In this document: one piece after another, positions 6,398 through 23,444 of the stretch
Layout: every line of letters begins with the position of its first letter
How positions within the stretch are numbered: the stretch's first letter is position 1
Notes under the pieces: model-generated
Databases searched by the model: none
What the model was told of the DNA's origin: nothing
What the model saw: only the letters and a program-made list of their open reading frames with translations
Translations under genes and position numbers: made by a program
From: Nitratidesulfovibrio vulgaris str. Hildenborough
GTDB taxonomy: Bacteria; Desulfobacterota; Desulfovibrionia; Desulfovibrionales; Desulfovibrionaceae
Length of the DNA stretch: 24,000 nucleotides
Direction of reading: 5' to 3'
NCBI RefSeq assembly: GCF_000195755.1
Contig: NC_002937.3
Coordinates: 2,659,175-2,683,174, forward strand

Positions 6398-7282
6398 CTA
6401 CACGGGAGCGATGCGCACCGTGGCCTTGCGCAGGTAGTCCACAGGGTAGTAGCTCTGCTTGGCCTTGCGCAACCCTTCGTCGTCGAGGTCCTGCTCGCGG
6501 TTCACCAGACGGAAGCGGGCCCCCTCGTACTGCACGAACTGCTGGTTGATGGCCTGATAGACGCCACGGTAGTCGCCACGCCCCTTCTCGAAATGCACAA
6601 CGAGGGTCTCGTCGTCGAGGGCCTCTCCCACGGTGTAGGCCACCATGCGCCCCTCGGCATAGAGTGCGCCCCCCACGAGGCCGGGGATGCTGTCCCACTC
6701 TTCGAGCACCCGGATGACAGCCTCGTTCTCGGCCAGCAGCGACTCGGATTCGGCGCACTCGCGCCACTGGCACCATTCCTCCTGCATCTCGATGACGGCC
6801 TCGATGCAATCGGGGGTGAGGGGATGGTAGTCGATGCCATAGGCCTTGGCGTAACCGTTCACATGATTCTTCTTGCGATGGAAGCGGTTACCCTTGAGGT
6901 CGGCGAGGTCGGCGGAATCGTAGAGATAGTCCCACTGACCGGGCGTCTCCTGCACCGTCACCCTGTCGCCCAGCACCTCGCGCCAGAGGCTTGCCAGTTC
7001 TTCCGGTACGCGGATGAACTCCATCCCCTTGCCGAGACATGTGCAGGATGCCCAGTCGATGTCGCCCCACGGCCCCACGGGGGCCCAGTAGCGCACTTCG
7101 GGCAGGGTCTGCCGCAACCAGCACAGTCCGTGTTCGAACCTCCATTCGAGGCCGTAATGCTCTGCCCATCCCCACAGGTTGGTGAAGCTGTAGTCCGAGG
7201 CACGGCGTGGCGTCCGTGCGAAAAGGGCGAGATAGTCCTGCATCGCATCGAGGGTGACGGGCGAGAAATCAGTCGCGGACAT
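6398..7282 (-). CDS. DUF2156 / LPG-synthase-C-like protein (stand-alone homolog of the MprF aminoacyl-tRNA transferase domain)
   Basis: 294 aa, with an ATG preceded by AGGGAGG. I recognise family hallmarks: FTNLWGW, GNRFHRKKNHVN, VVHFEKG, and NREQDLDDEGLRKAKQSYYP near the C-terminus. There are no TM segments. The start overlaps the MATE stop by 14 nt. Confidence 0.6.
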   Translation of the reverse strand: MSATDFSPVTLDAMQDYLALFARTPRRASDYSFTNLWGWAEHYGLEWRFEHGLCWLRQTLPEVRYWAPVGPWGDIDWASCTCLGKGMEFIRVPEELASLWREVLGDRVTVQETPGQWDYLYDSADLADLKGNRFHRKKNHVNGYAKAYGIDYHPLTPDCIEAVIEMQEEWCQWRECAESESLLAENEAVIRVLEEWDSIPGLVGGALYAEGRMVAYTVGEALDDETLVVHFEKGRGDYRGVYQAINQQFVQYEGARFRLVNREQDLDDEGLRKAKQSYYPVDYLRKATVRIAPV

Positions 7283-8738
7283 TGCTATTGCCTCCCTTGT
7301 GCGTCGTACCGTTGGCGCGGCGCATCATGCTGAACCTGCTCCAGTCCTTGGTCAGGAAAAGCCAGAACATGGTCGAAGACTGAAAGACCTGCGAGACGAG
7401 CATGGCGATGAAGACCCCCGCCGCGTCGCGCCAGACCACATGCCCCATGAACCACGCGCATGGAAGGCGCACGAACCATGTGGCCGAACTGTAGACGATG
7501 AAGTTGTAGAACGTGGCCCCCGCCCCGGTCATGATGCCCCCGAGGGTCATGCTGGCGACGGTGAAGGGAATGGATACGAGGTTGTAGCGCAGATAGCTCA
7601 CCGTCTGCGCGGCCACGGCCGCATCGGGAGTGAGGATGGCGGAGAGTTCGGGCACCCACGGCCAGAGCAGGGCCGCCAGCACGGTCATGCTGCCGCACCC
7701 TATCACCAGCAGGCGCAACCCGACACGGCGCGCGTCATCGCGCAGCCCCGCTCCCAGCAGATGCCCCACGAGAATGGAGGCCGTCATGTTGAAGGCGAAG
7801 GCCGGAAGAAAGATCAGCGACTCCACGCGCATGCCCGCCGTCAGCCCCGCCAGCGCATTCACGCTGTCCGCCGGGGCGGGCAGCGACCCCGTGATGGCGA
7901 AGAGCACCAGATAGCCCATGTGCCACAGCACCTGCATGGCAGCTGCGGGTGCCGCCACCTTCACGAGGTAGGGGGCGCCGCACCGTATCCAGCGCCAGGG
8001 CGGCATCGAAACACCCTGCACCATGCCGCCGCGCCGCAGAAGCACCACATTGAGCGCAGCCCCTGCCAGCACCGACCAGAACGTCCCCCACGCGACCCCG
8101 GCATAACCGAAGTCCGGCAGCCCCCACAGGCCAAGGCCGAAACCGGCACTGGCGACGGCGTTGACGACGCTGACCACGACCATGGTCAGCAACGGGGCGA
8201 TGACATCCTTGCGCGCCCTGAAGGCGGCGTTGCTGATGGTGAAAAGATAGTGGGCGGGCAGCGTCAGCAGGTAGACATGCCAGAAATAGGAGGCCACGGG
8301 CATTATGCGTTCCGGCACCATGAGCACATGCAGCAGCGCGTCGGCAGCCACAAGGCCCGAGGCCGCCACGACGCCGCCGCACAGCGCGCCGCCCCAGAGG
8401 ATGAGCGAGACGTAACGCCGGGCCCGGGCCAGCAGGCCCGCGCCAAGGGCCTGCCCCACTGCGGCGACGGCCCCGTTGGAGAGGGCCACCGCCACCACCA
8501 GCAGGAAGAACATGCACTGGTTGACGATGCCGAGAGAGGCCTGCACATCGGGGTTGATGCGCCCCGCCACCCATACGTCGGTGAAGCCGATGATGAACTG
8601 GAAGAGCATCATGAGCATCTGGGGCCATGTGAGCCGCCAGATGCCCCTGAAGGAGGCGTCGCCCGCCGCTATGGATGATGTGACCGTCACGCCTGTGCCT
8701 TCCGCCGATGGTGCACGACTGTGTCTTGCAAGCGTCAC
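7269..8738 (-). CDS. MATE-family efflux transporter
   Basis: Very hydrophobic multi-TM protein. The N-terminal WRLTWPQMLMMLFQFIIGFTDVWVAGR pattern is typical of NorM/MATE. The start is uncertain: GTG at 8738 has no SD, while an in-frame GTG at 8690 has GGAAGG 7 nt upstream. Confidence 0.8.
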   Translation of the reverse strand: MTLARHSRAPSAEGTGVTVTSSIAAGDASFRGIWRLTWPQMLMMLFQFIIGFTDVWVAGRINPDVQASLGIVNQCMFFLLVVAVALSNGAVAAVGQALGAGLLARARRYVSLILWGGALCGGVVAASGLVAADALLHVLMVPERIMPVASYFWHVYLLTLPAHYLFTISNAAFRARKDVIAPLLTMVVVSVVNAVASAGFGLGLWGLPDFGYAGVAWGTFWSVLAGAALNVVLLRRGGMVQGVSMPPWRWIRCGAPYLVKVAAPAAAMQVLWHMGYLVLFAITGSLPAPADSVNALAGLTAGMRVESLIFLPAFAFNMTASILVGHLLGAGLRDDARRVGLRLLVIGCGSMTVLAALLWPWVPELSAILTPDAAVAAQTVSYLRYNLVSIPFTVASMTLGGIMTGAGATFYNFIVYSSATWFVRLPCAWFMGHVVWRDAAGVFIAMLVSQVFQSSTMFWLFLTKDWSRFSMMRRANGTTHKGGNSNVRD

Positions 8739-9492: not shown

Positions 9493-10485
9493 TCAGACCC
9501 GGCTGTCAATGACGTCTCCCGCATGCAGCCTGTGCAGCGTACCGTTTCCGGCCAGAATGCACAGCCAGCCTTCAGGGGTCATGTCCGCCACGCGCCCTTC
9601 GACAAGTTCATCGCCGTGGCGCACTCGCAGATGCCGGCCCACGATATCCGAAAGTTCCTTCCAGCGTGTGATGACGGCCCCGGTGTCTCCCTCGCGCAGT
9701 GCACCGTACCAGTGTTCGGCACGTTCCAGAAAGGCGCGGGCGACATCAGCCCTTGCGACAGGTCGGCCGCACTCCGTCTGCAGCGACGTGGCGGCGACGC
9801 CCGCATCGACGAGGGCTTCCGCCGGGGTACTCACATTCACCCCCACGCCGGTGACGACCCAGTCCACCATGTCGGCGACGAGTCCCACCTCGGTGAGGTT
9901 GCCACAGACCTTGAGCCCCGCCATGAGCAGGTCGTTGGGCCATTTGACCTCCGGCATGAGGCCCGTCACGGCCTCGACAGCCTCTGCGGCGGCGACCGCC
10001 GTCATGAGGGTCACCAGCGGGGCCGCCTGCGGAGAAAGGCGGGGACGCAGCACCAGCGACACATACACGCCACCCTGCGGCGAGACCCATGGTCTGCCCG
10101 TACGCCCTCGCCCTGCCAGCTGCTGTGCGGCCATCACGACAGTGCCTTCGCAGGCACCGCCTACGGCAAGCGCCACGGCATCGCGATTGGTCGAGTCGGT
10201 GCTCTCGTGCCAGTGCAGACCGACCTTGCCGAACACCTCTGTGGCAAGTCCGCGCAGTACCTCTGCCGCCTCGAAGGGGGCTGTGGTCCTGTCCAGCCTG
10301 TAGCCGCGCCGCGTCACCGCCTCGATGACATAGCCCGCCGCACGCAACGCCCTGACATGCTTGCCCACGGCAGCGCGACTGACCCCGAGTTCCCTTGAAA
10401 GCTCCTCGCCGGAGCACCATCCATCGGCCTCGAACAAGCGTTCGAGTACTCGACGACGGGTCCCGTTTCTGCCCCTGTCGTCCAT
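9493..10485 (-). CDS. birA: Bifunctional biotin-[acetyl-CoA-carboxylase] ligase / bio operon repressor
   Basis: Start chosen at the internal ATG 10485 (MDDRGRNGTRRRVLERL). An N-terminal winged HTH is present (SGEELSRELGVSRAAVGKHVRALRAAGYVIE). The biotin-binding loop is GRGRTGRPWVSPQGG. The tracked ORF runs 146 codons further upstream, across the bioB promoter region. Confidence 0.9.
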   Translation of the reverse strand: MDDRGRNGTRRRVLERLFEADGWCSGEELSRELGVSRAAVGKHVRALRAAGYVIEAVTRRGYRLDRTTAPFEAAEVLRGLATEVFGKVGLHWHESTDSTNRDAVALAVGGACEGTVVMAAQQLAGRGRTGRPWVSPQGGVYVSLVLRPRLSPQAAPLVTLMTAVAAAEAVEAVTGLMPEVKWPNDLLMAGLKVCGNLTEVGLVADMVDWVVTGVGVNVSTPAEALVDAGVAATSLQTECGRPVARADVARAFLERAEHWYGALREGDTGAVITRWKELSDIVGRHLRVRHGDELVEGRVADMTPEGWLCILAGNGTLHRLHAGDVIDSRV

Positions 10486-10490
10486 GATAA

Positions 10491-10523
10491 TTGTAAACCC
10501 TCTAGAGCGTCTCTCGTTGACAG
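10491..10523. promoter_or_regulatory. BirA-operator-like inverted repeat TTGTAAACC-N15-cGTTGACAg
   Basis: The left half-site matches the known BirA half-site TTGTAAACC exactly. The right half matches 6 of 9 positions of GGTTTACAA, with a 15-nt spacer. It lies 6 nt upstream of the birA start and about 45 nt upstream of the bioB ATG. Confidence 0.6.
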
Positions 10524-10567
10524 TAAGAGAAGGCACGGTTAGTCGCTCGCGATACGCGAGGTACACC

Positions 10568-11653
10568 ATGCACAACCTGCTCGAAAACCTGCGCCGCCGC
10601 CTTCTGGCGCAGCGCACCCCGGAACCGCTCCCCCCGACATCGCAGGGTCTTGCACGACCGTCCCATGACGTCGTCCGTGGGCCTTGCGATGCCGACATCC
10701 CCCCGGATGCCCGAAACACGATGCCCGAAGGCATCACCGTCGAAGAAGCGCTTGCCGTGGCAGAACTTCCGCAGAAGCACGCCCTCGACATCCTCGCCAC
10801 CGCACAGGCGATTCGTTCAGTCCACAAGGGCGGCCCCGCCGCGCTGTGCGGTATCGTCAACGCCAAGTCGGGCCGCTGCCCGGAAGACTGCGCCTTCTGC
10901 GCACAGTCCTCGCACCATGCCACGGGCAGTCCCGTGCATGCCCTTCTCGACGCGGAGACCCTTCTCCGTCGTGCAGAAGAGCTACGCCAATCCGGAGCCG
11001 AGCGCTATGGTATTGTGACGAGCGGCACGCGCCTGACCGTCCGTGAACTCGCCACGTTGTGCGAGGCGGCGGTGCGCATCCGACGCGAAACAGGCATCGC
11101 CCTGTGCGGTTCTCTGGGGCAGTTGACGCCTGACGCGGCCGCCTGCCTGAAAGAGGCGGGTTTTTCCAGCTACCACCATAACCTTGAGACTTCTAGAAGT
11201 TTCTTCCCGGCCATCTGTTCCACACACGCCTACGACGACGACATCGCCACCGTGCGTGCCGCACGGGCTGCCGGGCTGCGCACATGTAGCGGCGGCATCT
11301 TCGGCATGGGCGAGACCGACGCCCAGCGCATCGAACTCTCGGCCACGTTACGCGAACTCGACGTGGATTCCATCCCCGTCAACCTGCTGTCGCCCATTCC
11401 GGGAACCCCGCTGCAACACCGCCCCACCATGCCACCCATGCGCGCCCTTGTGAGCATCGCCATCTACAGACTCATGCACCCGGCGCGTGACATCCTCGTG
11501 TGCGGCGGCCGCGAGGCGACCCTCGGCCCGTGGCAGTCGTGGATATTCCTTGCCGGGGCCAACGGCATGATGGTGGGCAACTATCTTACAACCACGGGAC
11601 GGGATATGGCGGACGACCTTGCCATGCTCGCCACCCTCGGAGTCCGCGCATGA
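10568..11653 (+). CDS. bioB: Biotin synthase (radical SAM)
   Basis: CPEDCAFCAQSS is the radical-SAM CxxxCxxC motif. SYHHNLETS, RTCSGGIFGMGET, IPVNLLSPIPGTPL and CGGRE align with E. coli BioB. The ATG at 10568 has GAGG 6 nt upstream. An alternative ATG at 10721 would give an E. coli-like N-terminus but has no SD. Confidence 0.85.
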   Translation: MHNLLENLRRRLLAQRTPEPLPPTSQGLARPSHDVVRGPCDADIPPDARNTMPEGITVEEALAVAELPQKHALDILATAQAIRSVHKGGPAALCGIVNAKSGRCPEDCAFCAQSSHHATGSPVHALLDAETLLRRAEELRQSGAERYGIVTSGTRLTVRELATLCEAAVRIRRETGIALCGSLGQLTPDAAACLKEAGFSSYHHNLETSRSFFPAICSTHAYDDDIATVRAARAAGLRTCSGGIFGMGETDAQRIELSATLRELDVDSIPVNLLSPIPGTPLQHRPTMPPMRALVSIAIYRLMHPARDILVCGGREATLGPWQSWIFLAGANGMMVGNYLTTTGRDMADDLAMLATLGVRA

Positions 11654-13278
11654 GCACTTCTCCCTTCAACAGCCGTGTCGCGCCTATGCCGCATGATGAT
11701 GCTACCGCGCCCGTTTTGCATTACGCGCATGACGCTGCTGGTGCGCATGACGCTGCTGACGCTGCTGGTGCGCATGACGCTGCTGACGCTGCTGGCACGC
11801 CACCCTGTGCCGCCTCCCGCACAGCCCGCCTCCGCAGCCTCGACGCAGCCCATGTATGGCACCCCTTCACCCAGATGCGCGACTGGATGGGCAGTGAACC
11901 GTGCATCATCGACGCTGCCGACGGCAACCATCTCATCGACACCGACGGCAACCGCTATCTCGACGGCGTCTCGTCGCTGTGGACCAACGTCCATGGTCAC
12001 CGCCATCCGCACATCGACGAGGCCATACGACGGCAACTCGACCGCGTGGCCCACTCCACACTCCTCGGCCTTGGCGGTACGCCCTCCATCGAACTTGCGG
12101 CACGTCTCACCGCCATCGCCCCGGCAGGGCTCACACGCGTGTTCTATTCCGACAGCGGTTCCACCGCCGTGGAAGCGGCCCTCAAGATTGCCTTCCAGTA
12201 CCATCGGCAGGCCCCGGAGGGCGATGCACGCCGCACCCGCGTGATGGCCTTCAGCAACGCCTACCACGGCGACACCATCGGTTCCGTCTCGCTAGGGGGT
12301 ATGTCGCTCTTCCACGGCATCTACGGGCCGTTGCTCTTCGACCCCGTGCGCGCCCCCGCCCCGCACTGCTACCGCTGCCCTGCGGACCTCAGGCCGGAGA
12401 CATGCGGCATGGCGTGCCTCGGCGAGGTCGAACGCCTCATGCGGCACCACGGGCACGAACTGTGCGCCGTGGTCGTGGAACCACTGGTGCAGGGCGCGGC
12501 GGGGATGCTGGTGCAGCCCCGCGGCTGGTTGCGCGGGCTGCGCGACCTCTGCGACCGCCATGGCGTCTTCATGGTGGCAGACGAGGTCGCCGTGGGCTTC
12601 GGCAAGACGGGCACCATGTTCGCCTGCGAACAGGAGGGCGTCGTGCCCGACATGCTCTGCCTCGCCAAGGGCATCACCGGGGGCTATCTGCCACTGGCGG
12701 CGACCCTCGTCACGGAACACATCCACGATGGCTTTCTGGGGGGCTACGCCGACTTCCGTACCTTCTTCCACGGACACACCTACACGGGCAACGCCCTCGC
12801 CTGCGCCGCGGCCCTCGCCTCGCTCGACGTCTTCGAAGAGGAACGCACGCTGGAGACCCTGCGTCCGCGCATCGAACGACTGGCGACACTGCTGGCCCCG
12901 CTGAACGACCTGCCCCATGTGGGCGACATACGCCGCGTTGGCGTGATGACCGGCATTGAACTGGTCGCCGACCGCGAGACCCGCACCCCCTATCGCCCCG
13001 AAGAACGCATCGGCCATCGCGTGACCCTCGAGGCGAGACGGCGTGGCGTCATCGTAAGGCCGCTGGGGGACGTGATGGTGCTCATGCCCCCCCTCTCCAT
13101 CACGGAGACGGAGTTGGAGACACTGGTGCATACCGTACGCGGCGCCATCATCGCCGTCACCGAACACGGGGCGGACGGGGGATTGTGGACGAAGCGCCCT
13201 GACGGCCCGGACAACCCGGACAAGGCCAACACGCCGGACACACCGGACGGGGCTCGCACCGGGGAGACCGTGGTGTGA
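11650..13278 (+). CDS. bioA: Adenosylmethionine-8-amino-7-oxononanoate aminotransferase, with N- and C-terminal low-complexity extensions
   Basis: The ATG overlaps the bioB TGA (ATGA at 11650-11653). Motifs: HVWHPFTQM, SDSGSTAVEAALKIA, DEVAVGFGKTG, and LCLAKGITGG carrying the PLP lysine. At 542 aa it is longer than E. coli BioA (429 aa, recalled from memory). Confidence 0.9.
   Translation: MSTSPFNSRVAPMPHDDATAPVLHYAHDAAGAHDAADAAGAHDAADAAGTPPCAASRTARLRSLDAAHVWHPFTQMRDWMGSEPCIIDAADGNHLIDTDGNRYLDGVSSLWTNVHGHRHPHIDEAIRRQLDRVAHSTLLGLGGTPSIELAARLTAIAPAGLTRVFYSDSGSTAVEAALKIAFQYHRQAPEGDARRTRVMAFSNAYHGDTIGSVSLGGMSLFHGIYGPLLFDPVRAPAPHCYRCPADLRPETCGMACLGEVERLMRHHGHELCAVVVEPLVQGAAGMLVQPRGWLRGLRDLCDRHGVFMVADEVAVGFGKTGTMFACEQEGVVPDMLCLAKGITGGYLPLAATLVTEHIHDGFLGGYADFRTFFHGHTYTGNALACAAALASLDVFEEERTLETLRPRIERLATLLAPLNDLPHVGDIRRVGVMTGIELVADRETRTPYRPEERIGHRVTLEARRRGVIVRPLGDVMVLMPPLSITETELETLVHTVRGAIIAVTEHGADGGLWTKRPDGPDNPDKANTPDTPDGARTGETVV
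11725..11796 (+). repeat. In-frame tandem repeat inside bioA (18-bp partial unit plus 2 x 27 bp)
   Basis: gcgcatgacgctgctggt, then gcgcatgacgctgctgacgctgctggt, then gcgcatgacgctgctgacgctgctggc. These encode AHDAAG-AHDAADAAG-AHDAADAAG. Confidence 0.9.
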
Positions 13279-13661
13279 AGACCGTCCACGAAGGAACGTT
13301 CCTCTTTCCCGCCACCCATCCGCTCTTCGCAGACCACTTCGAAGGTGCGCCCGTGGTGCCCGGTTCGTTGCTGCTTCGCGCCTTCGTGGAGGAAGCGGGC
13401 ACCGTATGGCCCGACTTTGCGACGCAGGGCGCCACGGGCTTTCGTTTCCGGCGGTTCGTGACGCCGGGTCGTCACCCGTTTCGCATGGAACGTACCGACC
13501 TCACTGTGCGCTGTACACTCATGGACGCTCAGGGGGGCATACTGGTGCGAGGCGATCTGACGACGGCAGACGCGACGGGCGATGCCGGAACGGATAACGA
13601 CAGAACGGGCGCTGACGGAGAGGCGGCCCTGCATACCTCGCCAAGAGGAACAACGGCATGA
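13275..13661 (+). CDS. Truncated FabZ-like hot-dog protein (His motif present, catalytic Glu position is Arg)
   Basis: The GTG start overlaps the bioA TGA (GTGA at 13275-13278). [23 protein letters not shown] aligns residue-for-residue with E. coli FabZ [34 protein letters not shown] aligns with EARFKRPVVPG. It lacks the N-terminal ~40 aa of FabZ and has a D/G/T-rich tail. Confidence 0.65.
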   Translation: [128 protein letters not shown]

Positions 13662-14686
13662 CTCTGCACCAGAAGGATGGTGACGACTACGCGGGGGGCA
13701 CGCGACGCCCCACCGCCGTCGCTCACGCGCAGCATGACATCGCCCCCGGAGTGGTGCTCATCCTCGGCGGTTCCAGCACGCTGGGGCTTGCCGCAGGTCG
13801 TGCGCTACTTGCCGCGGGACATCCCGTGGCCCTGACAACCCGCAATGCCGAAGGAACAGGGCGCATCCTTGCCGCCCTCGCCCCCGGTGAAGCGGGCATA
13901 CCCGACGGCGGCACTGACTTCTCCGGCAACAGGCCTGACCTCTTCAGCAACAGGCCTGACCTGTCCAACGGCGGGGCAGACAGGTGCCGTGTCTGTAGAC
14001 ATACGGGACACGCACCGTATGCCGTGCTGCCCGTCGAGAGTGCCGAATCATTACCCGACCGGTGCGCGGACGCACTGGGGACCCCGCCCCGCCACATGCT
14101 GGACTTCATGCATGGCCGCTTCGAGACGCTGGTCGCTGCCGCCCACGTCCACGACATCGACCGGTGGGCCATCGACGACATCGCCCTGCGGGCCCGATGC
14201 CTTCGCGCCGTCAGTCGGGCGATGCTGGCGGAGAGGGCCGGACGTTGTGTCTTCGTCTCCTCGACGGCAGCAGCCATGGCAGCGCACGGGCAGGGCTACT
14301 ATGCCGCAGCCAAGGCAGCGGGCGAGGCCCTGTACCGCAGTGCGGGTCTTGAACTGGCATCACGCGGGGTGACCACCTGTTCGTTGCGCCTCGGGTGGGT
14401 GGATGCGGGGCGCGGGGCGGACTTCATACGGGGCAATGACGCGCCCTACCGAGACGGGACTGCCCACGCCGTGCCCACCCCACACACCGCCACACAGCTT
14501 GCCGATGGCGTCCCCACCGGGCGTCTCGTCACCGTGGACGAGGTCGTGGGCACGCTCATGTTCCTCCTCTCCGGGGCGGCGACATCGCTCAACGCCACCC
14601 ATATCACCCTCGACGGCGGCTTCACCGCCGGAAAGCCCCGCGCCGGAACGCCGCGCACAGGTTCAGGAACACGGCGCACGGGCTGA
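13658..14686 (+). CDS. Short-chain dehydrogenase/reductase, FabG-like (3-oxoacyl-ACP reductase candidate) with a large insertion
   Basis: The ATG overlaps the upstream TGA (ATGA), with AGAGGAA upstream. Rossmann motif ILGGSSTLGLAAG. Catalytic pattern VSSTAA...GYYAAAKAA (S, YxxxK). The C-terminus GRLVTVDEVVGTLMFLLSGAATSLNATHITLDGGF is typical of FabG-type SDRs. Confidence 0.8.
   Translation: MTLHQKDGDDYAGGTRRPTAVAHAQHDIAPGVVLILGGSSTLGLAAGRALLAAGHPVALTTRNAEGTGRILAALAPGEAGIPDGGTDFSGNRPDLFSNRPDLSNGGADRCRVCRHTGHAPYAVLPVESAESLPDRCADALGTPPRHMLDFMHGRFETLVAAAHVHDIDRWAIDDIALRARCLRAVSRAMLAERAGRCVFVSSTAAAMAAHGQGYYAAAKAAGEALYRSAGLELASRGVTTCSLRLGWVDAGRGADFIRGNDAPYRDGTAHAVPTPHTATQLADGVPTGRLVTVDEVVGTLMFLLSGAATSLNATHITLDGGFTAGKPRAGTPRTGSGTRRTG
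13926..13967 (+). repeat. In-frame 21-bp tandem repeat x2 inside the SDR gene
   Basis: gcaacaggcctgacctcttca / gcaacaggcctgacctgtcca, encoding (G)NRPDLFS / NRPDLSN inside the SDR insertion. Confidence 0.9.
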
Positions 14687-14785: not shown

Positions 14786-15193
14786 ATGCCAGAGACACCA
14801 GCATTCGACACGGTACGCGCCATCGTCGCCGACATCTTCGAGGTGGCACCCGAAACCCTCACGCCCGCGACCCGTCTCTTCGAAGACCTGCCCTGCGAGT
14901 CCATCGACCTTCTGGAAATCGGCGCGGGTCTCAACCGCCGCTGCCGCATCCCCGTGGATGACGACGCGGCCTTCCTGCGTTCACTTCGCATCCACCTCAT
15001 GGAGGCCGAGAGAGAGAGACGCGATGCGACACAGCACCTTGCCAGCGTCTACCCGCACCTCACAGCACGGCGGGTGGCATCCATCGTCGAGGCACTGCGC
15101 GCCCCCGCATCACCGCCTGTGCTCACGCTGGCTGACATCACCGCCTACGTCGACCACGTACGCAACGACGTGCAGCGCACCGGAGAGGTTTGA
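14786..15193 (+). CDS. Atypical acyl carrier protein (PP-binding domain with ~50-aa insertion)
   Basis: VRAIVADIFEVAPETLTPATRLFEDLPCESIDLLEIGAGLNRRCRIPVDDDAA aligns with E. coli ACP [53 protein letters not shown]. The Ser of CES aligns with Ser36. The SD is weak (GAGAAG). There is a 99-nt gap from the SDR stop. Confidence 0.7.
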   Translation: MPETPAFDTVRAIVADIFEVAPETLTPATRLFEDLPCESIDLLEIGAGLNRRCRIPVDDDAAFLRSLRIHLMEAERERRDATQHLASVYPHLTARRVASIVEALRAPASPPVLTLADITAYVDHVRNDVQRTGEV

Positions 15194-15470
15194 CCGGCAT
15201 GGACGGGGAAAGAGACAGGGGACAAGGGGGGCATGGACACCAGGCCCCGTCACTCCTGTCCTCTCACCGACGTGCGGGCGGCACCCCGCAGTCAAGGGAC
15301 AGGGCGGCCCCCCGGACTGGCACACAGACTGACGTGCCCACCGGCACCCCGACTGGCCCCTGCACTGCACTGACGGGCGCACAGACACCGCCTTGCGAAG
15401 TAGCCCGACAACCATCAGCACCCCGCCTGCACTCCATCTGTGGGCCCTATCCACCTGACATCGCATCGCC

Positions 15471-16919
15471 ATGAACGACTCCGCACATCACCAACGCACG
15501 CAAGACGCCACGGGCAACCGCATGCGCGTCGTCATCTCCGGCATGGACTGCGTCACGCCCTTGGGCGACGACGCCAGCCTTGCCGCCCACCTACACCACG
15601 GCACCCCGCCCTTCATGCCCGCCCCGGTGCTGCCGGGGGCCGCATGGTGCCCTGTGAACGCCTTCGACCCGGCACAGGCGACAGACCACTGGCGACACCG
15701 CCGCTATCTCTCGCGGGGCGGTCTCTTCGCGCTGGCTTCGGCCCTCGGCGCAGCACGCGATGCTGGATGGGGGGCATCGGCCCCCGACGGGGCGGCGCTG
15801 GTCACCGCGCATGGTCCCAACCTCGACATCACCTCGGACTTTCCGCACTGCCATTGCGACGTCTCCGGGACTGGCGACACACAAGGCGATGCGCCCTCTC
15901 CCTGCGCGACCTCGACGCATGGAGGCCCCACCGCCGCGCACGGCGTCAATGGCATGAATGGCGTGGATGGCCCAGATGAGGCGCGACATGGCCTCTCCCG
16001 CGATACGGCAGGACTCGACCACCCCGGACTTGATGCCCTGTGGCTGCTGCGCTGGCTGCCCAACACCGCCGCCTCGGCCATCGCGCAGCGCCTCGGCATC
16101 CATGGTGAAGGGCTGGTCGTAGGCACGGCCTGCGCCGCAGGCTTGCAGGCACTGGGAGAGGCATACCGCCGCGTGCGGCACGGTCTCGCCCCCACGGTGC
16201 TGGCTGCGGGCGGCGACTCCCGCCTCTCTGCGGGGGGGATGCTGGGCTACGCACGGGCCGACGCCCTGTGGCACTCCAACGCGCGCCCGGCCTCCCATGC
16301 CGAGGCCCTGCGTGCCATGCGGCCCTTCGACGCCGCGCATGGCGGCTTCGTCCCCGGTGAAGGCGGTGCGGCCTTCGTACTGGAGACGGAAGCCGCTGCA
16401 TGTGCGCGGGGGGCTACAATCCACGGCGAGATTCTCGGATTCGGCGCGACACTGGACGGTGCCAGCCTCACGGCCCCCGATGCCACGGCGCATCACGCCG
16501 AATGCGCCGTGCGCAAGGCCCTCGATGACGCAGGGTTCACCCCCGGCGACATCGCATGGGTGGCAGCGCACGGCACCTCGACACCGCGCGGAGACGCCGC
16601 CGAAGCCCTGCTTCTGCAACGCGTCTTCACCGACGCGGGGCACCGCCCCGCCGTCACCGCCCTCAAGTCATGGACAGGTCACCTCGCCTCCGCCTGCGGA
16701 CTCGCCGAATGCGCGCTGATGCTGCGGGCCGCCCGGTGCGGCGTGCTGCCGTCCATCCGCAATCTCGACACCCCATGTTCCCCGGCAGCGGAAGGACTCG
16801 ACCTCGTGCGCGAACCACGTCCCTTCCCGCAAGGGCCGGGACTCATCCAGAGTTTCGGCTTCGGGGGGCAGAATGCCGCGCTCATCGTCATGCCTGCCGT
16901 AACAAGGGCGGGCCAGTGA
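15471..16919 (+). CDS. Beta-ketoacyl-ACP synthase, KAS I/II (FabF/FabB) type, Cys-His-His triad
   Basis: VVGTACAAGLQALGEA carries the active Cys. AAHGTSTPRGDAAE and LKSWTGHLASACGLAE carry the two His. Also PFDAAHGGFVPGEGGAAFVLE and a C-terminal SFGFGGQNAALIV. There is a ~68-aa insertion at residues ~121-188. The start could instead be ATG 15522 (MRVVISGMDCVTPLG). Neither start has a clear SD. Confidence 0.85.
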   Translation: MNDSAHHQRTQDATGNRMRVVISGMDCVTPLGDDASLAAHLHHGTPPFMPAPVLPGAAWCPVNAFDPAQATDHWRHRRYLSRGGLFALASALGAARDAGWGASAPDGAALVTAHGPNLDITSDFPHCHCDVSGTGDTQGDAPSPCATSTHGGPTAAHGVNGMNGVDGPDEARHGLSRDTAGLDHPGLDALWLLRWLPNTAASAIAQRLGIHGEGLVVGTACAAGLQALGEAYRRVRHGLAPTVLAAGGDSRLSAGGMLGYARADALWHSNARPASHAEALRAMRPFDAAHGGFVPGEGGAAFVLETEAAACARGATIHGEILGFGATLDGASLTAPDATAHHAECAVRKALDDAGFTPGDIAWVAAHGTSTPRGDAAEALLLQRVFTDAGHRPAVTALKSWTGHLASACGLAECALMLRAARCGVLPSIRNLDTPCSPAAEGLDLVREPRPFPQGPGLIQSFGFGGQNAALIVMPAVTRAGQ

Positions 16920-17512
16920 TGCCGCGTCACGCCATGCCGACAGCACACGACGCCATCTTCACGGACGGCACACAGAGGGCCTCGCACACGTCCCCTTGCC
17001 CCCCGCATCTCCCCGGTGAAGCACTCCCCGACGACACGCCCCCCGGTTTCGTGCTTCTGGACGCCATCACGCGCTACGACACCTCGGGGTTGACCGCAGT
17101 GCGCCAGTACAGCCGCACCCCGGCATGGCACGCGGTGGAAGCCATGGCACAAGCCGGGGCCATGCATCTGCGGTTTCTGGGCGACTTCTCAGACCATGCC
17201 TTCCTGCTTGGCATCACCGACTGCCCTTGGCCCGAGACGCCGCTTGACGGCTGCTGCCGTATCGAAGTGCGCCTCACAGCCCTCACACAGGGGGCGGCAT
17301 CCTACGACATGACCCTTTCCCTCGATGGCCCTGATGAGGTGACCACAAAGCAACAGACGGTGGGGCGTACTGTAGAGCACGCGGTACGGTGGGTGGGGCA
17401 GGGTGCGATGCTCTTCGGTCGCGTCCCCTACGACAACATATACCGCGAGGCCGTCCTCGCGCCACGCTACCGGAGACTCTTCGCATGGCTCACCCGTTCC
17501 TGCACCGCCTGA
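16919..17512 (+). CDS. Second hot-dog-fold protein, FabZ/FabA-like, retaining EAMAQ but lacking the His-containing segment
   Basis: The ATG at 16919 overlaps the KAS TGA (TGATG). [22 protein letters not shown] resembles FabZ [36 protein letters not shown] matches FabZ LILEAMAQATGIL. The [14 protein letters not shown] block is absent. The N-terminal ~45 aa are low complexity. Confidence 0.5.
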   Translation: [197 protein letters not shown]

Positions 17513-18759
17513 CCCTGCGCCTCGACGCGCAACGCGCTGCGGGTCTCGACCGCACTGTCATGACACCGGAGACGCGTACGACTCGCCACGTCATCCTCGA
17601 CGGTCAGCGACTCTGCAACTTCGCCTCCAACGACTATCTCGGCCTTGCCGATGATGCGGCATGGCGTGCCGAGGTCGCCGACTGCTTCGCCCGCCACCCT
17701 GCTTCGGGCACGGCATCACGCCTTGCCGCCGGACATTCCGCGCTGGTGGCCGAAGCCGAAGCTGCATGGGCCGAACATTTCGGATATGAGAGTTGCCTCT
17801 TCCTGCCCAGCGGCTATCAGGCCAACCTCGCCGTGGTGACGGGGCTGCTGCACACGGGCGACACCCTCTTCATCGACAGGCGTATCCACGCCAGCATGGC
17901 GCGGGCAGTGCCCCTGTGTGGGGCACACCCGGTCACCTATCCCCACGGCGACCTCGCCCGACTCGACCGCAGGCTGACCGCGTGGAGACACGAAACAACC
18001 GCGGAGACGGCATCAGCCGCACCTCTCACAGAGGGGGCGCCCCTGTCGTCCCCGCCCGCGACATGTCCGACGGCATCCCCGCCGCCGCACGGGGACGCCA
18101 GCCCCGTCATACTCACCGAATCCCTCTTCAGCATGGACGGCACAGTGACCTCCATGGACGCCCTCGCCACCCTGCGGTCACGACACGGGGCCTTCGTCAT
18201 CCTTGACGAGGCCCATGCCTGCGGTGCCTTGGGGCAAGGCGGGCGCGGCCTTGCATGGGGACAAACGGAGAATGCCCCCGCCGCCGACGTCATCGTGGGC
18301 ACGCTGGGCAAGGGACCGGGATTCTTCGGTGCGTTCGTGCTCATGCCGCGCATCGTGCGCGAGTCGCTTGAGAACTTCGCCTCTGCCGTCATGCACTCCA
18401 CGGCCCTGCCTGAAGCCCACGCCGCTGCCGTGTTGCGTCTGCTGCCCCGCATGGCGGGCATGGACGACGCACGCGCACGCCTCGCCCGCAACGCCCGCGC
18501 ACTGCGCGAGGGGCTGGCCGGTTGCGGCCTGCCAGTGCATGGCGACGCCCATATCCTGTGCATTGAGACAGGTGACGAGGCACAGGCAACGCAACTGGCC
18601 CGAAGACTTCGTACCCAAGGGGTGCTGGCCCTCTCTGCGCGACACCCCACCGTCCCCCACGGGCACGCCATCGTGCGCTTCAGCGTCACCGCCGCCCATA
18701 CCGACGACGACATCACGTATTGCAAGGAGACCGTTCACACATGTCTGCACACGAGATGA
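17485..18759 (+). CDS. bioF: 8-amino-7-oxononanoate synthase
   Basis: The ATG at 17485 has GGAG 9 nt upstream and overlaps the upstream gene by 28 nt. Motifs: NFASNDYLGL, SGYQANLAV, ESLFSMDG, DEAHACG, and GTLGKGPG carrying the PLP lysine. There is an A/P/S/T-rich insertion at about residues 167-206. Confidence 0.9.
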   Translation: MAHPFLHRLTLRLDAQRAAGLDRTVMTPETRTTRHVILDGQRLCNFASNDYLGLADDAAWRAEVADCFARHPASGTASRLAAGHSALVAEAEAAWAEHFGYESCLFLPSGYQANLAVVTGLLHTGDTLFIDRRIHASMARAVPLCGAHPVTYPHGDLARLDRRLTAWRHETTAETASAAPLTEGAPLSSPPATCPTASPPPHGDASPVILTESLFSMDGTVTSMDALATLRSRHGAFVILDEAHACGALGQGGRGLAWGQTENAPAADVIVGTLGKGPGFFGAFVLMPRIVRESLENFASAVMHSTALPEAHAAAVLRLLPRMAGMDDARARLARNARALREGLAGCGLPVHGDAHILCIETGDEAQATQLARRLRTQGVLALSARHPTVPHGHAIVRFSVTAAHTDDDITYCKETVHTCLHTR

Positions 18760-19481
18760 ACCACGCGACACCACGTCTGCCTGCGCCCCTCTTCGTCACC
18801 GGTACGGATACGGGGGTGGGCAAGACGGTGGTGAGTCTGTTGCTGATGAGGGCGCTGTTCAGACGGGGGATGGTCCCCTTCTACGCCAAGCCCATGCAGA
18901 CGGGCTGCCGCGACCCGTATGACACGGACAGCGACGCAGCCTTCGTCTACCGGCATGTGCCGGAATTGGCGGAAAGGGATCCTGCGGAAGCGGTGGGATG
19001 GTGCTTCAGGGCACCCAAGGCTCCGCTCCACGCCGCGCGGGACGAACGCAACGGCGTGGAGACGGAAGACCTGATGCGCAGGTTGGCAATCCTGCGCGCT
19101 ACACATGCCTGCCTCGTTCTGGAGGGTGCGGGCGGGCTCATGGTGCCCTTCACCGCCGACGCGCTGTGCGTCGACTGCATCCGGGCGGCGGATGCGCGCC
19201 CCGTGCTTGTGGCGCGGGACGGTCTGGGAACCGTGAACCACACCCTCCTTTCCGTGGAGGCGATGACCCGAAGAGGCGTGACGCCGGCAGGGATCGTTTT
19301 CGTTGCATCCGGAAAACGCCCCACCCCTTCGGACCTTGTCCACGACAACATGGAAGCGGTGGCCATGCTGTCAGGGATATCCGTGAGCGGCATCGTGCCG
19401 CCCATCCTTGATTTTCATGCGCCGCCCGAAGCTGCGCTGACCGTTGCCGACGCCGTCATCGACGCGGCACTCGGCCTGTAG
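18741..19481 (+). CDS. bioD: Dethiobiotin synthetase
   Basis: FVTGTDTGVGKTVVS is the P-loop, nearly identical to E. coli FVTGTDTEVGKTVAS. The ATG at 18741 has AAGGAG 11 nt upstream. An alternative ATG at 18756 forms an ATGA overlap with the bioF stop. Confidence 0.9.
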   Translation: MSAHEMNHATPRLPAPLFVTGTDTGVGKTVVSLLLMRALFRRGMVPFYAKPMQTGCRDPYDTDSDAAFVYRHVPELAERDPAEAVGWCFRAPKAPLHAARDERNGVETEDLMRRLAILRATHACLVLEGAGGLMVPFTADALCVDCIRAADARPVLVARDGLGTVNHTLLSVEAMTRRGVTPAGIVFVASGKRPTPSDLVHDNMEAVAMLSGISVSGIVPPILDFHAPPEAALTVADAVIDAALGL

Positions 19482-19636: not shown

Positions 19637-20902
19637 CTAGAGCCCCAGCCCCTCGTACATGGCCACAAGGTCGTCCAGCGTCTCGCGGCGCCGCACGAGG
19701 CGAGGCCTGCCCTCGAGGTCGATGAGCACCTCGGCGGGGCGCATCCGCTGGTTGTAGGAGGAACTCATGACATAACCGTAGGCACCGGCGTCGAGAACAC
19801 CGAGGATGTCACCCTCCTCCACCGGAGGCAGGGGCCTGTTCCTGGCGATGATGTCGCCGCTTTCGCAGATGTTGCCCACAACGGTCTGCGGCAGCAGCAG
19901 GTCCGAGGGGGCTCCGTCTTCACGGTACACCTCGATGTCGTGGTGCGCGTCGTACATGACGGGACGCGCCAGCACGTTGAAGCCGAGGTCGGTACCCACG
20001 TAGCGGTTGGCACCGTTGGACTTCACCGAATGCACCGAACCGAGAAGCAGGCCGCATTCGGCCACCACGTAGCGCCCCGGTTCGACGAGGAACCGCCCGC
20101 GATAGCCGCGCCGCTGCGCCCAGCCGGAGATGAGGTCGTCGAACTGCGCCCCCATGGCGGTGAGGTCGAGACGGGGCTGGTTGTCGTACTTGTGATAGGG
20201 GATGCCGAAGCCGCCGCCGAAGTCGATGACCTCGACGTCGTCGAAGCGTTCCGCCAGCGTGAGCAGAAAACGCGCAGCCTCGACATAGCTTTCCGGTTCG
20301 AGGAAGAGCGAGCCGATGTGCTGGTTGATGCCCGCCAGCGTGAGATTGTGCCGTGCGAGGATGGTACGCACCTCATCGATGGATGCGGGGTCGACGCCGA
20401 ACTTCGTCTCCTTGCCCGCCGTGACCACCTTCTTGTGGTGGCCCGCCCCGATGCCGGGGTTGAAGCGCACCATCACGCGCCCGCCGGGGTTCACCTCGCC
20501 GTAGAGGTCAAGCTGCGAGAGCGAATCGACGCTCACCAGCAGGCCATGCGACACGGCATTGCCCAGTTCTTCGGCGGAGACGTTGTTGCACACGTAGAGA
20601 ATCTTGTCGGGGGAGAAGCCCGCCCGAAGGTTCATGAACAGTTCGCCGGGCGACATGGCGTCGACCACCAGCCCTTCCTCGCGGATGATGTGGAGCAGCG
20701 CGAGGTTGCTGTTGGCCTTGGCGGAATAGTTCACGCGGAAGCCGGGATGCGACGAGAGGGCCTTCATCTCGCGGCAACGCTGGCGGAGGATGGCCTCGCT
20801 GTAGACATAGAGCGGACTGCCATAGGTCTCGACCAGTTCGGTGGGCGAGGTGAGTCCGAAGAAGCCGACGGCGTCGGTGTAGGTGGATCGTACGTTGGGC
20901 AT
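19637..20902 (-). CDS. lysA: Diaminopimelate decarboxylase (Orn/DAP/Arg decarboxylase fold-III PLP family)
   Basis: Start at the internal ATG 20902 (MPNVRSTYTD), overlapping the upstream stop as TGATG. Motifs: YSAKANSNLALL (PLP lysine), GGGFGIPY, EPGRYVVAECG, and CESGD. Confidence 0.85.
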   Translation of the reverse strand: MPNVRSTYTDAVGFFGLTSPTELVETYGSPLYVYSEAILRQRCREMKALSSHPGFRVNYSAKANSNLALLHIIREEGLVVDAMSPGELFMNLRAGFSPDKILYVCNNVSAEELGNAVSHGLLVSVDSLSQLDLYGEVNPGGRVMVRFNPGIGAGHHKKVVTAGKETKFGVDPASIDEVRTILARHNLTLAGINQHIGSLFLEPESYVEAARFLLTLAERFDDVEVIDFGGGFGIPYHKYDNQPRLDLTAMGAQFDDLISGWAQRRGYRGRFLVEPGRYVVAECGLLLGSVHSVKSNGANRYVGTDLGFNVLARPVMYDAHHDIEVYREDGAPSDLLLPQTVVGNICESGDIIARNRPLPPVEEGDILGVLDAGAYGYVMSSSYNQRMRPAEVLIDLEGRPRLVRRRETLDDLVAMYEGLGL

Positions 20903-21606
20903 CACTCTGCTTCCTTGCCTTCGCGGATGCGGATGAGTTCCATTTCGTGCAGGATGGCCTCGCGCATGAGGTAGACGAGATGCTCGTTGCGCGAATACAG
21001 GCACCGCCCGCTCACGCCGGGTTCCAGCAGTCCCGCGATGACCTCGCTGGTGTCGGCGATGAGCTTCACATGTCCGGTGCCAGCCCGGTTCTTCAGAAAT
21101 ACGGCTCCCGCGATGGCGGGGTCGGTGTCGGAGAGGATGACGACCTTGAGGCCGCGTGCCACGCAATCCTCGAACTCACGCCGGAAGAGGGCAAGATTCT
21201 CGTGATGCAACGAGGCATAGACGCGCAGCGTCGCACCCGTCAGCATGTTGCGTATCTTGTTGGCGGTGTTCGCCAGTCCCGCGACGGTGAGATAGGGCGT
21301 CTCGTCGGGCTGTTCCTCGGGCAGGTTGGCATCGAGGAAGGCAAGCGTGGCCTCCGTGTCGCGCCGCAGGTTCCCAAGCAGTTCATGCCGGGGTACGGGG
21401 ACATAGCGGCTGGCATCACCGCTGGCGACCACAGCGCCCCCCTTCTCGACGAGGCTGGAAAGCGCGGCATAGGCGTTGGAACGCGAGATACCTGCAGCCT
21501 TGGCAGCCTCATAGCCCGTCATGGCCCCGTGGCGCAGCAGGGTGACGTAGAGCAACGACTCCTGCTGCGTGAATCCGAACTTGCGTAGTGCGAGGATGGT
21601 CTCCAT
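20902..21606 (-). CDS. TrmB-family transcriptional regulator
   Basis: The ATG at 21606 has AGGAGA 7 nt upstream. The N-terminus LRKFGFTQQESLLYVTLLRHGAMTGYEAAKAAGISRSNAYAALSSLVEKGGAV is the typical TrmB winged HTH. The tracked ORF extends 58 codons further upstream without support. Confidence 0.75.
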   Translation of the reverse strand: METILALRKFGFTQQESLLYVTLLRHGAMTGYEAAKAAGISRSNAYAALSSLVEKGGAVVASGDASRYVPVPRHELLGNLRRDTEATLAFLDANLPEEQPDETPYLTVAGLANTANKIRNMLTGATLRVYASLHHENLALFRREFEDCVARGLKVVILSDTDPAIAGAVFLKNRAGTGHVKLIADTSEVIAGLLEPGVSGRCLYSRNEHLVYLMREAILHEMELIRIREGKEAE

Positions 21607-21864
21607 CGCGCGTCTCCTCTCTCTGTGCCGCACATGCGGCGGTACCTTTCCGCATCGCCGCCAGGGTACGGGCGGTGCCCCTGCGTCATGCATATCGCAC
21701 GACCTGCCCGGGGCCGCACCATCGAGTCCGGCCTCCGGAAGGCCGCCACCGCACCTCTGACCAAGCAGATGGCAACGCACGCAGCATCGGCAGAACTACG
21801 AAGAAGGCGGAACTTGAAGACAGTCTCTGCCTGCTTCCTGTGCTTGCGGCCGACGCCGCCATGC

Positions 21865-22205: not shown

Positions 22206-23444
22206 TTGTCAGGTCATACCGCACACTCCGGCACCCGCCATCCGCACACCGGGGCAACAGTGCAACGCCTTGCCGCAGAGGTCGAGTCGCACATCATCGC
22301 GCACCGTCGTGCCTTGCACGCCATCCCGGAAACGGGCTTCGAAGAGAGGTGCACCGCCGCCTATGTGGCCGAAACCCTGTCGGGGCTTGGGCTGCCCGTC
22401 CGCACCGGCATCGCCACGACGGGTGTCACCGCCCTTCTCGACACGGGACTCGAGGGGCCTGTGGTCATGCTGCGGGCCGACATGGACGCCCTGCCCGTGA
22501 CCGAGGCCACGGGGCTGCCTTTCGCGTCACGGCACGAAGGCAGGATGCACGCCTGCGGGCACGACGCGCATATGGCCATGCTCCTTGGCGCAGCCGAGAT
22601 GCTGTCCGCCATCGTCCGTGAAGAACCCGGCAGACTGCGGGGCAAGGTGCTCTTCCTCTTCCAGCCCGCCGAGGAGGGCCCGGGAGGTGCCGCCCCGATG
22701 ATAGCCGAGGGCGTTCTCGACGAACCGAAGGTGGATGTCTGCCTCGGTGCCCATGTGTGGCCCTCGCTGCCTGTCGGCACGGTGGGCGTGAAGCCGGGGC
22801 CGCTCATGGCCGCCATGGACCGCTTCGAACTTGCCGTGCATGGCAGGGGGGGGCACGCCGCCACCCCCCATCTCTGCGTCGATGCGCTGGAGACGGCGAC
22901 ACAGGTCGTGGGTGCCCTGCAGCGGGTCGTGAGCCGCATGACCGACCCGCTGGAACCCGTCATCCTCACCATCGGCGAGCTTCATGCCGGTACGGCCTAC
23001 AATGTCATTCCCGGTGAAGCGCGCATGGCGGGCACGGTGCGCACCTTCTCGCCCGATGTGCGTGCCGCATGGGAGGACCGCATCCGCACGGTGGCAGACG
23101 GCGTCTGTGCAGCCATGGGAGCCACCGCCACCCTCGACTTCCACTATTGCCACGGCCCGGTGATCAACACCCCCCGAGTGGCCGAGGTGGTGCGCCGCGC
23201 GGTGGTCGAGGCAAGAGGGGAACAGGCCGTGACGACGCCCACCCCCACGCTCGGGGGCGAGGACTTCTCATGCTTCCTCGAACGGATTCCCGGATGCTTC
23301 TTCTTCGTGGGATGCGGTGGCGACGTTCCCATCCACAACCCGCGCTTCGACCTCGACGAGCGTTGTCTTGCGCTGGGGGCCGAGACGTTCGTTCGTGCCG
23401 CACTCCTGTTCACGGAGGGCGGCGCAACGGGAATGACCGCGTAA
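22206..23444 (+). CDS. M20D-family amidohydrolase (N-acyl-L-amino acid amidohydrolase / hippurate hydrolase type)
   Basis: LHAIPETGFEE, MHACGHDAHMAML, LFQPAEEGPGGA and GGEDFS are typical of the family. The TTG start at 22206 has GGAGG 5 nt upstream. An in-frame GTG at 22260 is an alternative start. Confidence 0.8.
   Translation: MSGHTAHSGTRHPHTGATVQRLAAEVESHIIAHRRALHAIPETGFEERCTAAYVAETLSGLGLPVRTGIATTGVTALLDTGLEGPVVMLRADMDALPVTEATGLPFASRHEGRMHACGHDAHMAMLLGAAEMLSAIVREEPGRLRGKVLFLFQPAEEGPGGAAPMIAEGVLDEPKVDVCLGAHVWPSLPVGTVGVKPGPLMAAMDRFELAVHGRGGHAATPHLCVDALETATQVVGALQRVVSRMTDPLEPVILTIGELHAGTAYNVIPGEARMAGTVRTFSPDVRAAWEDRIRTVADGVCAAMGATATLDFHYCHGPVINTPRVAEVVRRAVVEARGEQAVTTPTPTLGGEDFSCFLERIPGCFFFVGCGGDVPIHNPRFDLDERCLALGAETFVRAALLFTEGGATGMTA

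Follow-up and report, generated by a model that had tools for sequence, protein, structure and literature searches.

The extended bio operon of Nitratidesulfovibrio vulgaris str. Hildenborough encodes an acyl carrier protein (ACP) that is far longer than usual and that carries its putative phosphopantetheine serine behind a glutamate, which raises the question of whether these deviations are genuine and, if so, what they may be for. The window analysed here is a stretch of 24,000 nucleotides from contig NC_002937.3 (positions 2,659,175 to 2,683,174 of the forward strand), and all positions below refer to it. The dedicated ACP gene lies at 14786..15193 on the plus strand and was delineated from its open reading frame, the translation, a PP-binding match and a conserved family. 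ATG is the sole start within its open frame, and the translated product has 135 amino acids, in agreement with the length that the original prediction had set against less than 80 amino acids for E. coli ACP. The reading frame is almost certainly DVU2562 of N. vulgaris Hildenborough, with the same operon content and a divergent birA.

The gene and its role in biotin synthesis are already known (predicted 2004; RB-TnSeq 2021/2023). In 2004 Rodionov et al. assigned synthesis of the pimeloyl precursor, by prediction, to the FAS-like genes of the operon (PMC545781). Using RB-TnSeq, Trotter et al. (2023) found that DVU2558-DVU2565, together with the unlinked nitroreductase DVU1220, are specifically required when biotin is lacking, and that the fitness defects of DVU2560-DVU2563 and the bio genes are confined to biotin-free medium (PMC10102598). 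In the same study DVU2562 was named an alternate or "specialized ACP" for a route that proceeds without methyl esters and without bioC or bioH. The proposal that the operon has a dedicated, divergent carrier, separate from the one housekeeping ACP that the genome encodes, is supported, and it had already been published for DVU2562 (PMC545781; PMC10102598). Both papers cover genetics and context only, and neither mentions the insertion, the Glu-Ser motif or the changes in helix II; the fold, the insertion, its conservation and the gene context described below come from the present analysis. A literature search, with most subscription journals outside its reach, brought up neither biochemical nor structural work on DVU2562 or the carrier of the pathway, and a search of the same reach on segments inserted between ACP helices III and IV gave nothing relevant. 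The Glu-Ser motif and the 50-residue helical insertion are real, conserved and apparently undescribed. We regard the conserved architecture, the family-wide signature, the linkage between ACP and nitroreductase, and a second group of long ACPs as useful additions to the published work.

DVU2562 is encoded between the SDR and the KAS of the extended bio operon. Upstream, bioB (longest ORF 10361-11653, plus strand, true start further in; Radical_SAM and BATS) is followed by bioA (longest ORF 11500-13278, plus strand, true start again further in; Aminotran_3), by the first FabZ-like hot-dog gene (HD1; 13275..13661, plus strand; PF07977, 23.3 bits), whose position upstream of the SDR is conserved, and by the SDR or 3-oxoacyl-ACP reductase-like gene (13658..14686, plus strand; adh_short), directly upstream of the ACP gene. 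On its other side a spacer of 277 nt (15194..15470) separates the ACP gene from the FabF-like KAS DVU2563 (15471..16919, plus strand; PF00109 and PF02801). The second hot-dog gene (HD2; 16919..17512, plus strand), with its ATG overlapping the KAS stop codon (TGATG), has a conserved place between KAS and bioF and gave no Pfam match. The operon continues with bioF (17485..18759, plus strand; Aminotran_1_2 and translation), which most likely starts at ATG 17485 and not at GTG 17389 of the longest ORF, and with bioD (18720..19481, plus strand; AAA_26).

Divergent from bioB, on the minus strand, lies birA (9493..10480, start approximate, longest ORF 9493-10923; HTH_11, BPL_LplA_LipB and BPL_C). The longest birA and bioB ORFs overlap head to head, and the birA HTH domain begins at residue 153 and the bioB radical-SAM domain at residue 171; from these domain positions the true starts lie well inside the ORFs, leaving a divergent control region near 10480-10700. 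The flanking genes, a MatE transporter (7269-8738, minus strand), an Orn/DAP/Arg decarboxylase (19637-21166, minus strand), a TrmB-type regulator (20902-21780, minus strand) and an M20 peptidase (22206-23444, plus strand), have no visible link to the bio operon. An Rfam search of the whole window, ACP-KAS spacer included, gave no match.

The general fold of the N-terminal part was supported by the PP-binding profile (PF00550), which matched DVU2562 with 25.1 bits against a cut-off of 20.8 (25.7 bits in a whole-genome profile scan). Residues 8-62 (14807..14971, plus strand) correspond to profile positions 1-54 of 67 and, by the AlphaFold2 model and profile alignment as well, to ACP helices I-III, so that the expected likeness of the first ~55 residues to these helices is borne out. 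The match stops at helix III, and the last ACP helix does not follow directly. The NCBIfam ACP models match the N-terminal part only, far below their cut-offs (TIGR00517 and NF002148-51, best 24-29 bits versus cut-offs of 65-106; TIGR00517 24.4 versus 70.45). By these scores, by its E-S-I motif and by its 135 residues, DVU2562 falls outside the housekeeping AcpP type.

The AlphaFold2 model of DVU2562, built with 18 homologues, reached a pLDDT of 92.9 and a pTM of 0.87, with helices at residues 5-18, 39-53, 59-62, 67-76, 81-88, 94-103 and 115-132. It exhibits the four-helix bundle of a carrier protein with Ser39 at the N-terminus of helix II. Residues 63-112 (14972..15121, plus strand) fold confidently into three short helices (67-76, 81-88 and 94-103), and helix IV occupies residues 113-132 (15122..15181, plus strand). 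An exhaustive structure comparison with the model returned carrier proteins for all of the best 50 matches, with Z up to 10.8. Whole ACP chains of 74-80 residues span the model from about 1 to 128 with just 74-80 aligned residues (AntF, 6sm4_A: 77/78 aligned with an rmsd of 1.3 and Z 10.1), and thus about 50 residues are looped out; Foldseek displayed the same pattern, with ~120 alignment columns against targets of 75 residues. Moreover, positions 112-123 of the family profile (tlgDlaaYve) align with helix IV of a Thermotoga ACP, the corresponding stretch of DVU2562 being LTLADITAYVDHV (residues 113-125). The predicted helices, the superpositions and the profile alignment, together with conservation, thus place residues 63-112 between helices III and IV, where the model presents them as a true three-helix insertion. 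The original description of a ~50-residue segment followed by a helix IV-like stretch can thereby be given exact numbers. A C-terminal extension, with 'LRSLRIHLMEA' right after helix III as helix IV, was also considered; the known chains superpose only with residues 115-132 as helix IV, and the helix IV sequence motif, which aligns in the same region, likewise contradicts it.

That the extra segment might be an artefact, through a mis-called frame, a sequencing error or fusion with a neighbouring ORF, was a danger named from the outset. The gene lies in a region of 68% G+C, within a window of 63-71% G+C that contains many long spurious ORFs, some of which overlap the ACP gene in other frames. 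However, an identical protein has been recorded from 177 contigs, orthologues down to ~30% identity are co-linear along the whole length, the model is confident throughout, and helix IV, which is needed to complete the fold, comes after the insert. With the superpositions of known ACPs added, an artefact is ruled out, and we give it practically no chance.

The attachment motif DLPCESIDLLEI (residues 34-45; 14885..14920, plus strand) contains Ser39, with its codon at 14900-14902, and the putative phosphopantetheine serine does lie in the non-canonical Glu-Ser context that had been pointed out. Ser39 is invariant in alignments of 18 (A1) and 40 (A2) sequences; in the larger one E38 and D41 are invariant as well, and E44 is nearly so. 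The family-wide motif, derived from 130 aligned members and distant orthologues from related genomes, is [DE]L-x-x-E-S-I-D. The Pro-Cys before Glu-Ser is confined to a Desulfovibrionaceae subset, with GA, DA, ET and so on elsewhere.

Helix II of DVU2562 reads ESIDLLEIGAGLNRRC. Its front acidic triad, E38, D41 and E44, is kept, and LNRRC takes the place of the MEEEF of the AcpP from the same genome. Among the 130 members, N/S/G, R/S/A and R/E/A predominate at family positions 50-52, which are thus mostly non-acidic, and judged from the aligned sequences the rear acidic patch (a Glu cluster) of the recognition helix is lost in the DVU2562 family. In ACP recognition, AcpS contacts the front acidic triad, and FAS enzymes bind the acidic helix II as a whole. 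By analogy, a kept front triad and lost rear acids would fit a carrier that can still be modified and yet is a poor partner for bulk fatty-acid synthesis. Glu in place of Asp before the serine is an uncommon arrangement, which we assume AcpS can accept. The window encodes no phosphopantetheinyl transferase, as had been noted, and the single PF01648 match of the genome is located ~0.7 Mb away (C1:1984474). A PP-binding scan of the genome identified one housekeeping AcpP (C1:1297095), likewise far from the window, with 76 aa and the motif DLGADSLD.

The insertion is conserved far beyond N. vulgaris. In 34 close homologues of 121-150 aa, co-linear with DVU2562, DLPCESIDLLEI is invariant, and homologues of 114-154 aa carry the insertion co-linearly. 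An HMM search of 1.84 billion representatives gave 88 clusters (50% identity, E<=1e-10), mostly of 110-140 aa and with end-to-end matches. When ORFs were picked by the Ser motif alone, 80/80 were 114-154 aa long and had the insert. The length of the insert across the family ranges from 26 to 76 residues, and variation is free at the majority of its positions. The conserved ones are F63, L64, L67, R68, L85, Y89, P90, L92 and R96, with F63, L64, P90, L92 and R96 as the most strongly conserved core, and L113, D117 and Y121 can be added in helix IV. R96 is present in 108/130 sequences and R68 in 90/130, with 22 gaps. The insert had been described as Arg-rich, which holds for DVU2562 (net charge +3, pI 11.2) and is lineage-specific: the mean net charge over the 130 family members is -0.3 +/- 2.9, and the insert is therefore not generally basic. 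DVU2562 carries the [DE]L-x-x-E-S-I-D motif and an insert of ~45-50 residues with F63, L64, P90, L92 and R96, a signature that was defined in the present analysis and not taken from the literature. A bacterial-type long ACP, 52% identical to DVU2562, was also found on a contig of a MAG labelled Methanosarcinaceae archaeon (L059, JBQVLY010000058.1), probably because the contig was misbinned rather than because an archaeon encodes the protein.

The gene context in other genomes was assessed by scanning a genome collection with the pattern [DE]LGAESIDL. The scan gave 324 related loci, of which 80 were kept (from Syntrophales, Syntrophobacterales, Desulfobacterales, Desulfarculales, Desulfohalobiaceae and others) and 73, being full-length, were analysed for gene order. 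The order is HD1-SDR-ACP-nitroreductase-KAS-HD2-bioF-bioD. The ACP gene is directly preceded by the SDR in 65/73 loci, and directly followed by the nitroreductase in 64/73 and by the KAS in 4/73. Among 41 related genomes the HD2 gene turned up in none that lacked the long ACP, and no short ACP was seen inside a biotin-type cluster in the genomes searched. The conserved order, the uniformly long motif-picked ORFs and the co-occurrence with HD2 thus make the long ACP a constant of the pathway in these genomes.

Compared with this arrangement the N. vulgaris operon is a derived form, which lacks the in-cluster nitroreductase exactly at the 277-nt spacer, where most other species have that gene. 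When four cluster nitroreductases were compared with the spacer by tblastn only noise was obtained; the position would fit a decayed nitroreductase gene, but with no residual similarity this origin is unsupported. N. vulgaris relies on the unlinked nitroreductase DVU1220 (PMC10102598).

In two small Desulfobacterota genomes of low G+C (G147 and G113) the unit is minimal and consists of the long ESID ACP, a nitroreductase and bioF, with or without bioD (L047:8325-10397 and L048:4520-7356). With the queries used, neither a private KAS nor a hot-dog gene was found in them, and their single FabF-type KAS adjoins the housekeeping ACP. These minimal units suggest that the route has its core in the carrier, the nitroreductase and BioF, and since the ACP travels with the nitroreductase and bioF alone, those two are presumably its most important partners.

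A second kind of long ACP, here called group B, was encountered in six other Desulfobacterota genomes (L050-L055), in the form of 132-aa proteins with DLGAESLD and a co-linear insert of ~50 residues with a different sequence. Similar Glu-Ser proteins of 127-154 aa, with DLGAESIDLLD and inserts containing LPEVD or MPYADL, occur in Ozemobacter, Planctomycetota and Verrucomicrobia MAGs (L131-L137), and the ESM Atlas added only generic long PP-binding clusters, among them ones from Planctomycetota, Verrucomicrobia and Ozemobacter. With DVU2562 these proteins share a Glu-Ser motif, in their case DLGAES[LI]D; they measure 127-154 aa, their co-linear insert of ~50 residues again precedes helix IV, and hhalign paired group B with the biotin family at 98.8% over 126 columns. 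The insert sequence differs, however (with MPEVD in group B), and the likeness is one of position and not proven homology of the inserts. A core-only maximum-likelihood tree (72 columns) gave no resolved branching that would bear on a single origin of the two kinds of insert, and the AlphaFold2 model of group B, from 6 sequences, was poor (pLDDT 63). Unlike DVU2562, the group B ACPs are unlinked to bio genes. The cluster at L050:2110-14107, a non-biotin multi-KAS cluster of type-II FAS/PKS-like character, comprises five KAS, a shikimate-DH-like gene, an SDR, the 132-aa long ACP, three FabA-like genes and an epimerase-family reductase.

We consider it likely that DVU2562 is the private carrier of a pimeloyl-ACP module, with helix II and the insert as its identity marks. 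Ser39, at the start of helix II, would be the phosphopantetheine site and would be charged by the only AcpS-type transferase of the genome. Holo-DVU2562 would then take intermediates that derive from malonyl and have a free omega-carboxyl group through the KAS, the SDR and the split hot-dog dehydratase of the operon, present them to the unlinked nitroreductase-like enzyme as well, and finally hand pimeloyl to BioF. Its presumed identity marks versus the housekeeping ACP are E-S-I-D on a helix II without rear glutamates and the three-helix insertion, which, going by general ACP topology, should adjoin the attachment end of helix II. As a best guess, the insertion serves as a docking and specificity module for the carrier's own enzymes, above all BioF and the nitroreductase, and insertion and altered helix II together may keep the carrier apart from bulk fatty-acid synthesis. 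Insulation of its intermediates from the housekeeping system, which the original prediction had suggested, may hold, and the missing rear acidic patch on helix II supports it. If G147 and G113 do lack the private KAS and hot-dog enzymes, the long ACP works with housekeeping fatty-acid synthesis there, which would weaken insulation as a general purpose.

The insert and the Glu-Ser context lend themselves to other explanations as well. In canonical ACPs helices III and IV join close to the mouth of the acyl pocket, at that end of the bundle which has the serine. The insertion enters at this junction and could by analogy form a lid on, or an extension of, the pocket, in which the charge of the free omega-carboxylate on malonyl, glutaryl and pimeloyl chains would be neutralised by R68 and R96; no methyl-ester disguise by BioC/BioH would then be needed. 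This explanation is possible but unlikely. The two arginines do belong to the few conserved polar residues of the insert (90/130 and 108/130), and the published model has no methyl esters, bioC or bioH (PMC10102598), but the near-neutral family average of the insert (-0.3 +/- 2.9) does not favour a site for carboxylates. Furthermore, a co-linear insert is also present in the non-biotin multi-KAS long ACPs, and the insert is therefore not specific to BioF or to dicarboxylate cargo, which tells against the docking reading too. It is quite unlikely, in turn, that the insertion is a well-folded decoration, kept by inheritance and without part in catalysis or recognition, specificity residing in helix II and the private enzymes alone. 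The range of insert lengths (26 to 76 residues), the free variation at most positions and the mostly hydrophobic core character of the conserved ones would be in line with mere decoration; on the other hand, the insert is retained in 80/80 motif-picked ORFs and in ~88 clusters at 50% identity, R68, Y89-P90 and R96 are conserved, and the biotin-type clusters of the genomes searched exhibited no short form.

Very improbable indeed is a role of DVU2562 as a carrier-like scaffold without phosphopantetheine, serving BioF or the KAS as an adaptor or a regulatory subunit. A Glu-Ser motif where Asp-Ser is canonical could be so interpreted, as could the scores far below the NCBIfam cut-offs (24.4 versus 70.45 bits for TIGR00517). 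But invariant Ser39, E38 and D41, with E44 nearly invariant, is the pattern expected of a modified serine on a recognition helix, and without DVU2562 the KAS, SDR and dehydratase set of the pathway would have no private carrier. A bolder proposal, which we rate as distinctly unlikely, is that E-S-I-D and the three-helix insert define an undescribed class of 'long' ACPs, in which the insert caps the pocket and R68 and R96 bind the omega-carboxylate, on a scaffold re-used by type-II FAS-like clusters of several phyla. If true, the carboxylate-binding insert would explain how these anaerobes assemble pimeloyl-ACP without the methyl-ester disguise of BioC/BioH.

To our knowledge, genetics has named the parts of the pimeloyl route of anaerobes without BioC/BioH, BioW, BioI or BioZ, and none of its enzymes or carriers has been characterised. 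With DVU2562 as its private carrier, this route has an ACP of distinct structure, in which a subdomain is inserted and conserved and the recognition helix is re-charged. This architecture is constant for the pathway in more than 300 species, and the most faithful neighbours of the carrier are the nitroreductase-like gene and bioF. The motif [DE]L-x-x-E-S-I-D in a protein of ~120-140 aa can serve as an annotation signature for the pathway; the existing NCBIfam and Pfam models cover such long ACPs only in part, with NCBIfam scores below the cut-offs.

Among known carriers E. coli AcpP (PDB 4ihf, 1l0i; TIGR00517) shares with DVU2562 the four-helix fold (4ihf_G, 75/76 residues superposed, Z 8.8), the serine with which helix II begins and the acidic positions at the front of that helix. 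DVU2562 differs from it in having 135 versus ~77 aa, E-S-I versus D-S-L, a 50-residue insert between helices III and IV and no rear Glu cluster, and its core charge is -9 versus -13 in the AcpP of its own genome. The best structural match is RPA2022, a 'specialized acyl carrier protein' of Rhodopseudomonas palustris (PDB 2kw2, 3lmo; Z 10.8, 92 residues, rmsd 2.5). RPA2022 is likewise a longer than usual, pathway-dedicated ACP. It has 101 versus 135 aa and 22% identity, leaves ~40 insert residues unmatched and belongs to a different pathway; its profile match (AcpXL-like) covers only residues 7-58 of DVU2562 (E 3.9e-4), the structural alignment covers 92/135 residues, and we do not place DVU2562 in the AcpXL-like family.

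Pimeloyl-ACP is known to be supplied by BioC and BioH, acting on methyl esters on AcpP, or by BioI through cleavage of acyl-ACP. The ACP complexes 4etw and 3ejb are among the fold matches of the DVU2562 model. Like the route of DVU2562, the BioC/BioH and BioI routes provide pimeloyl-ACP for BioF by FAS-like chemistry on a carrier protein. In contrast, they borrow the housekeeping AcpP, whereas the DVU2562 route has a private, modified carrier and no bioC or bioH (PMC10102598).
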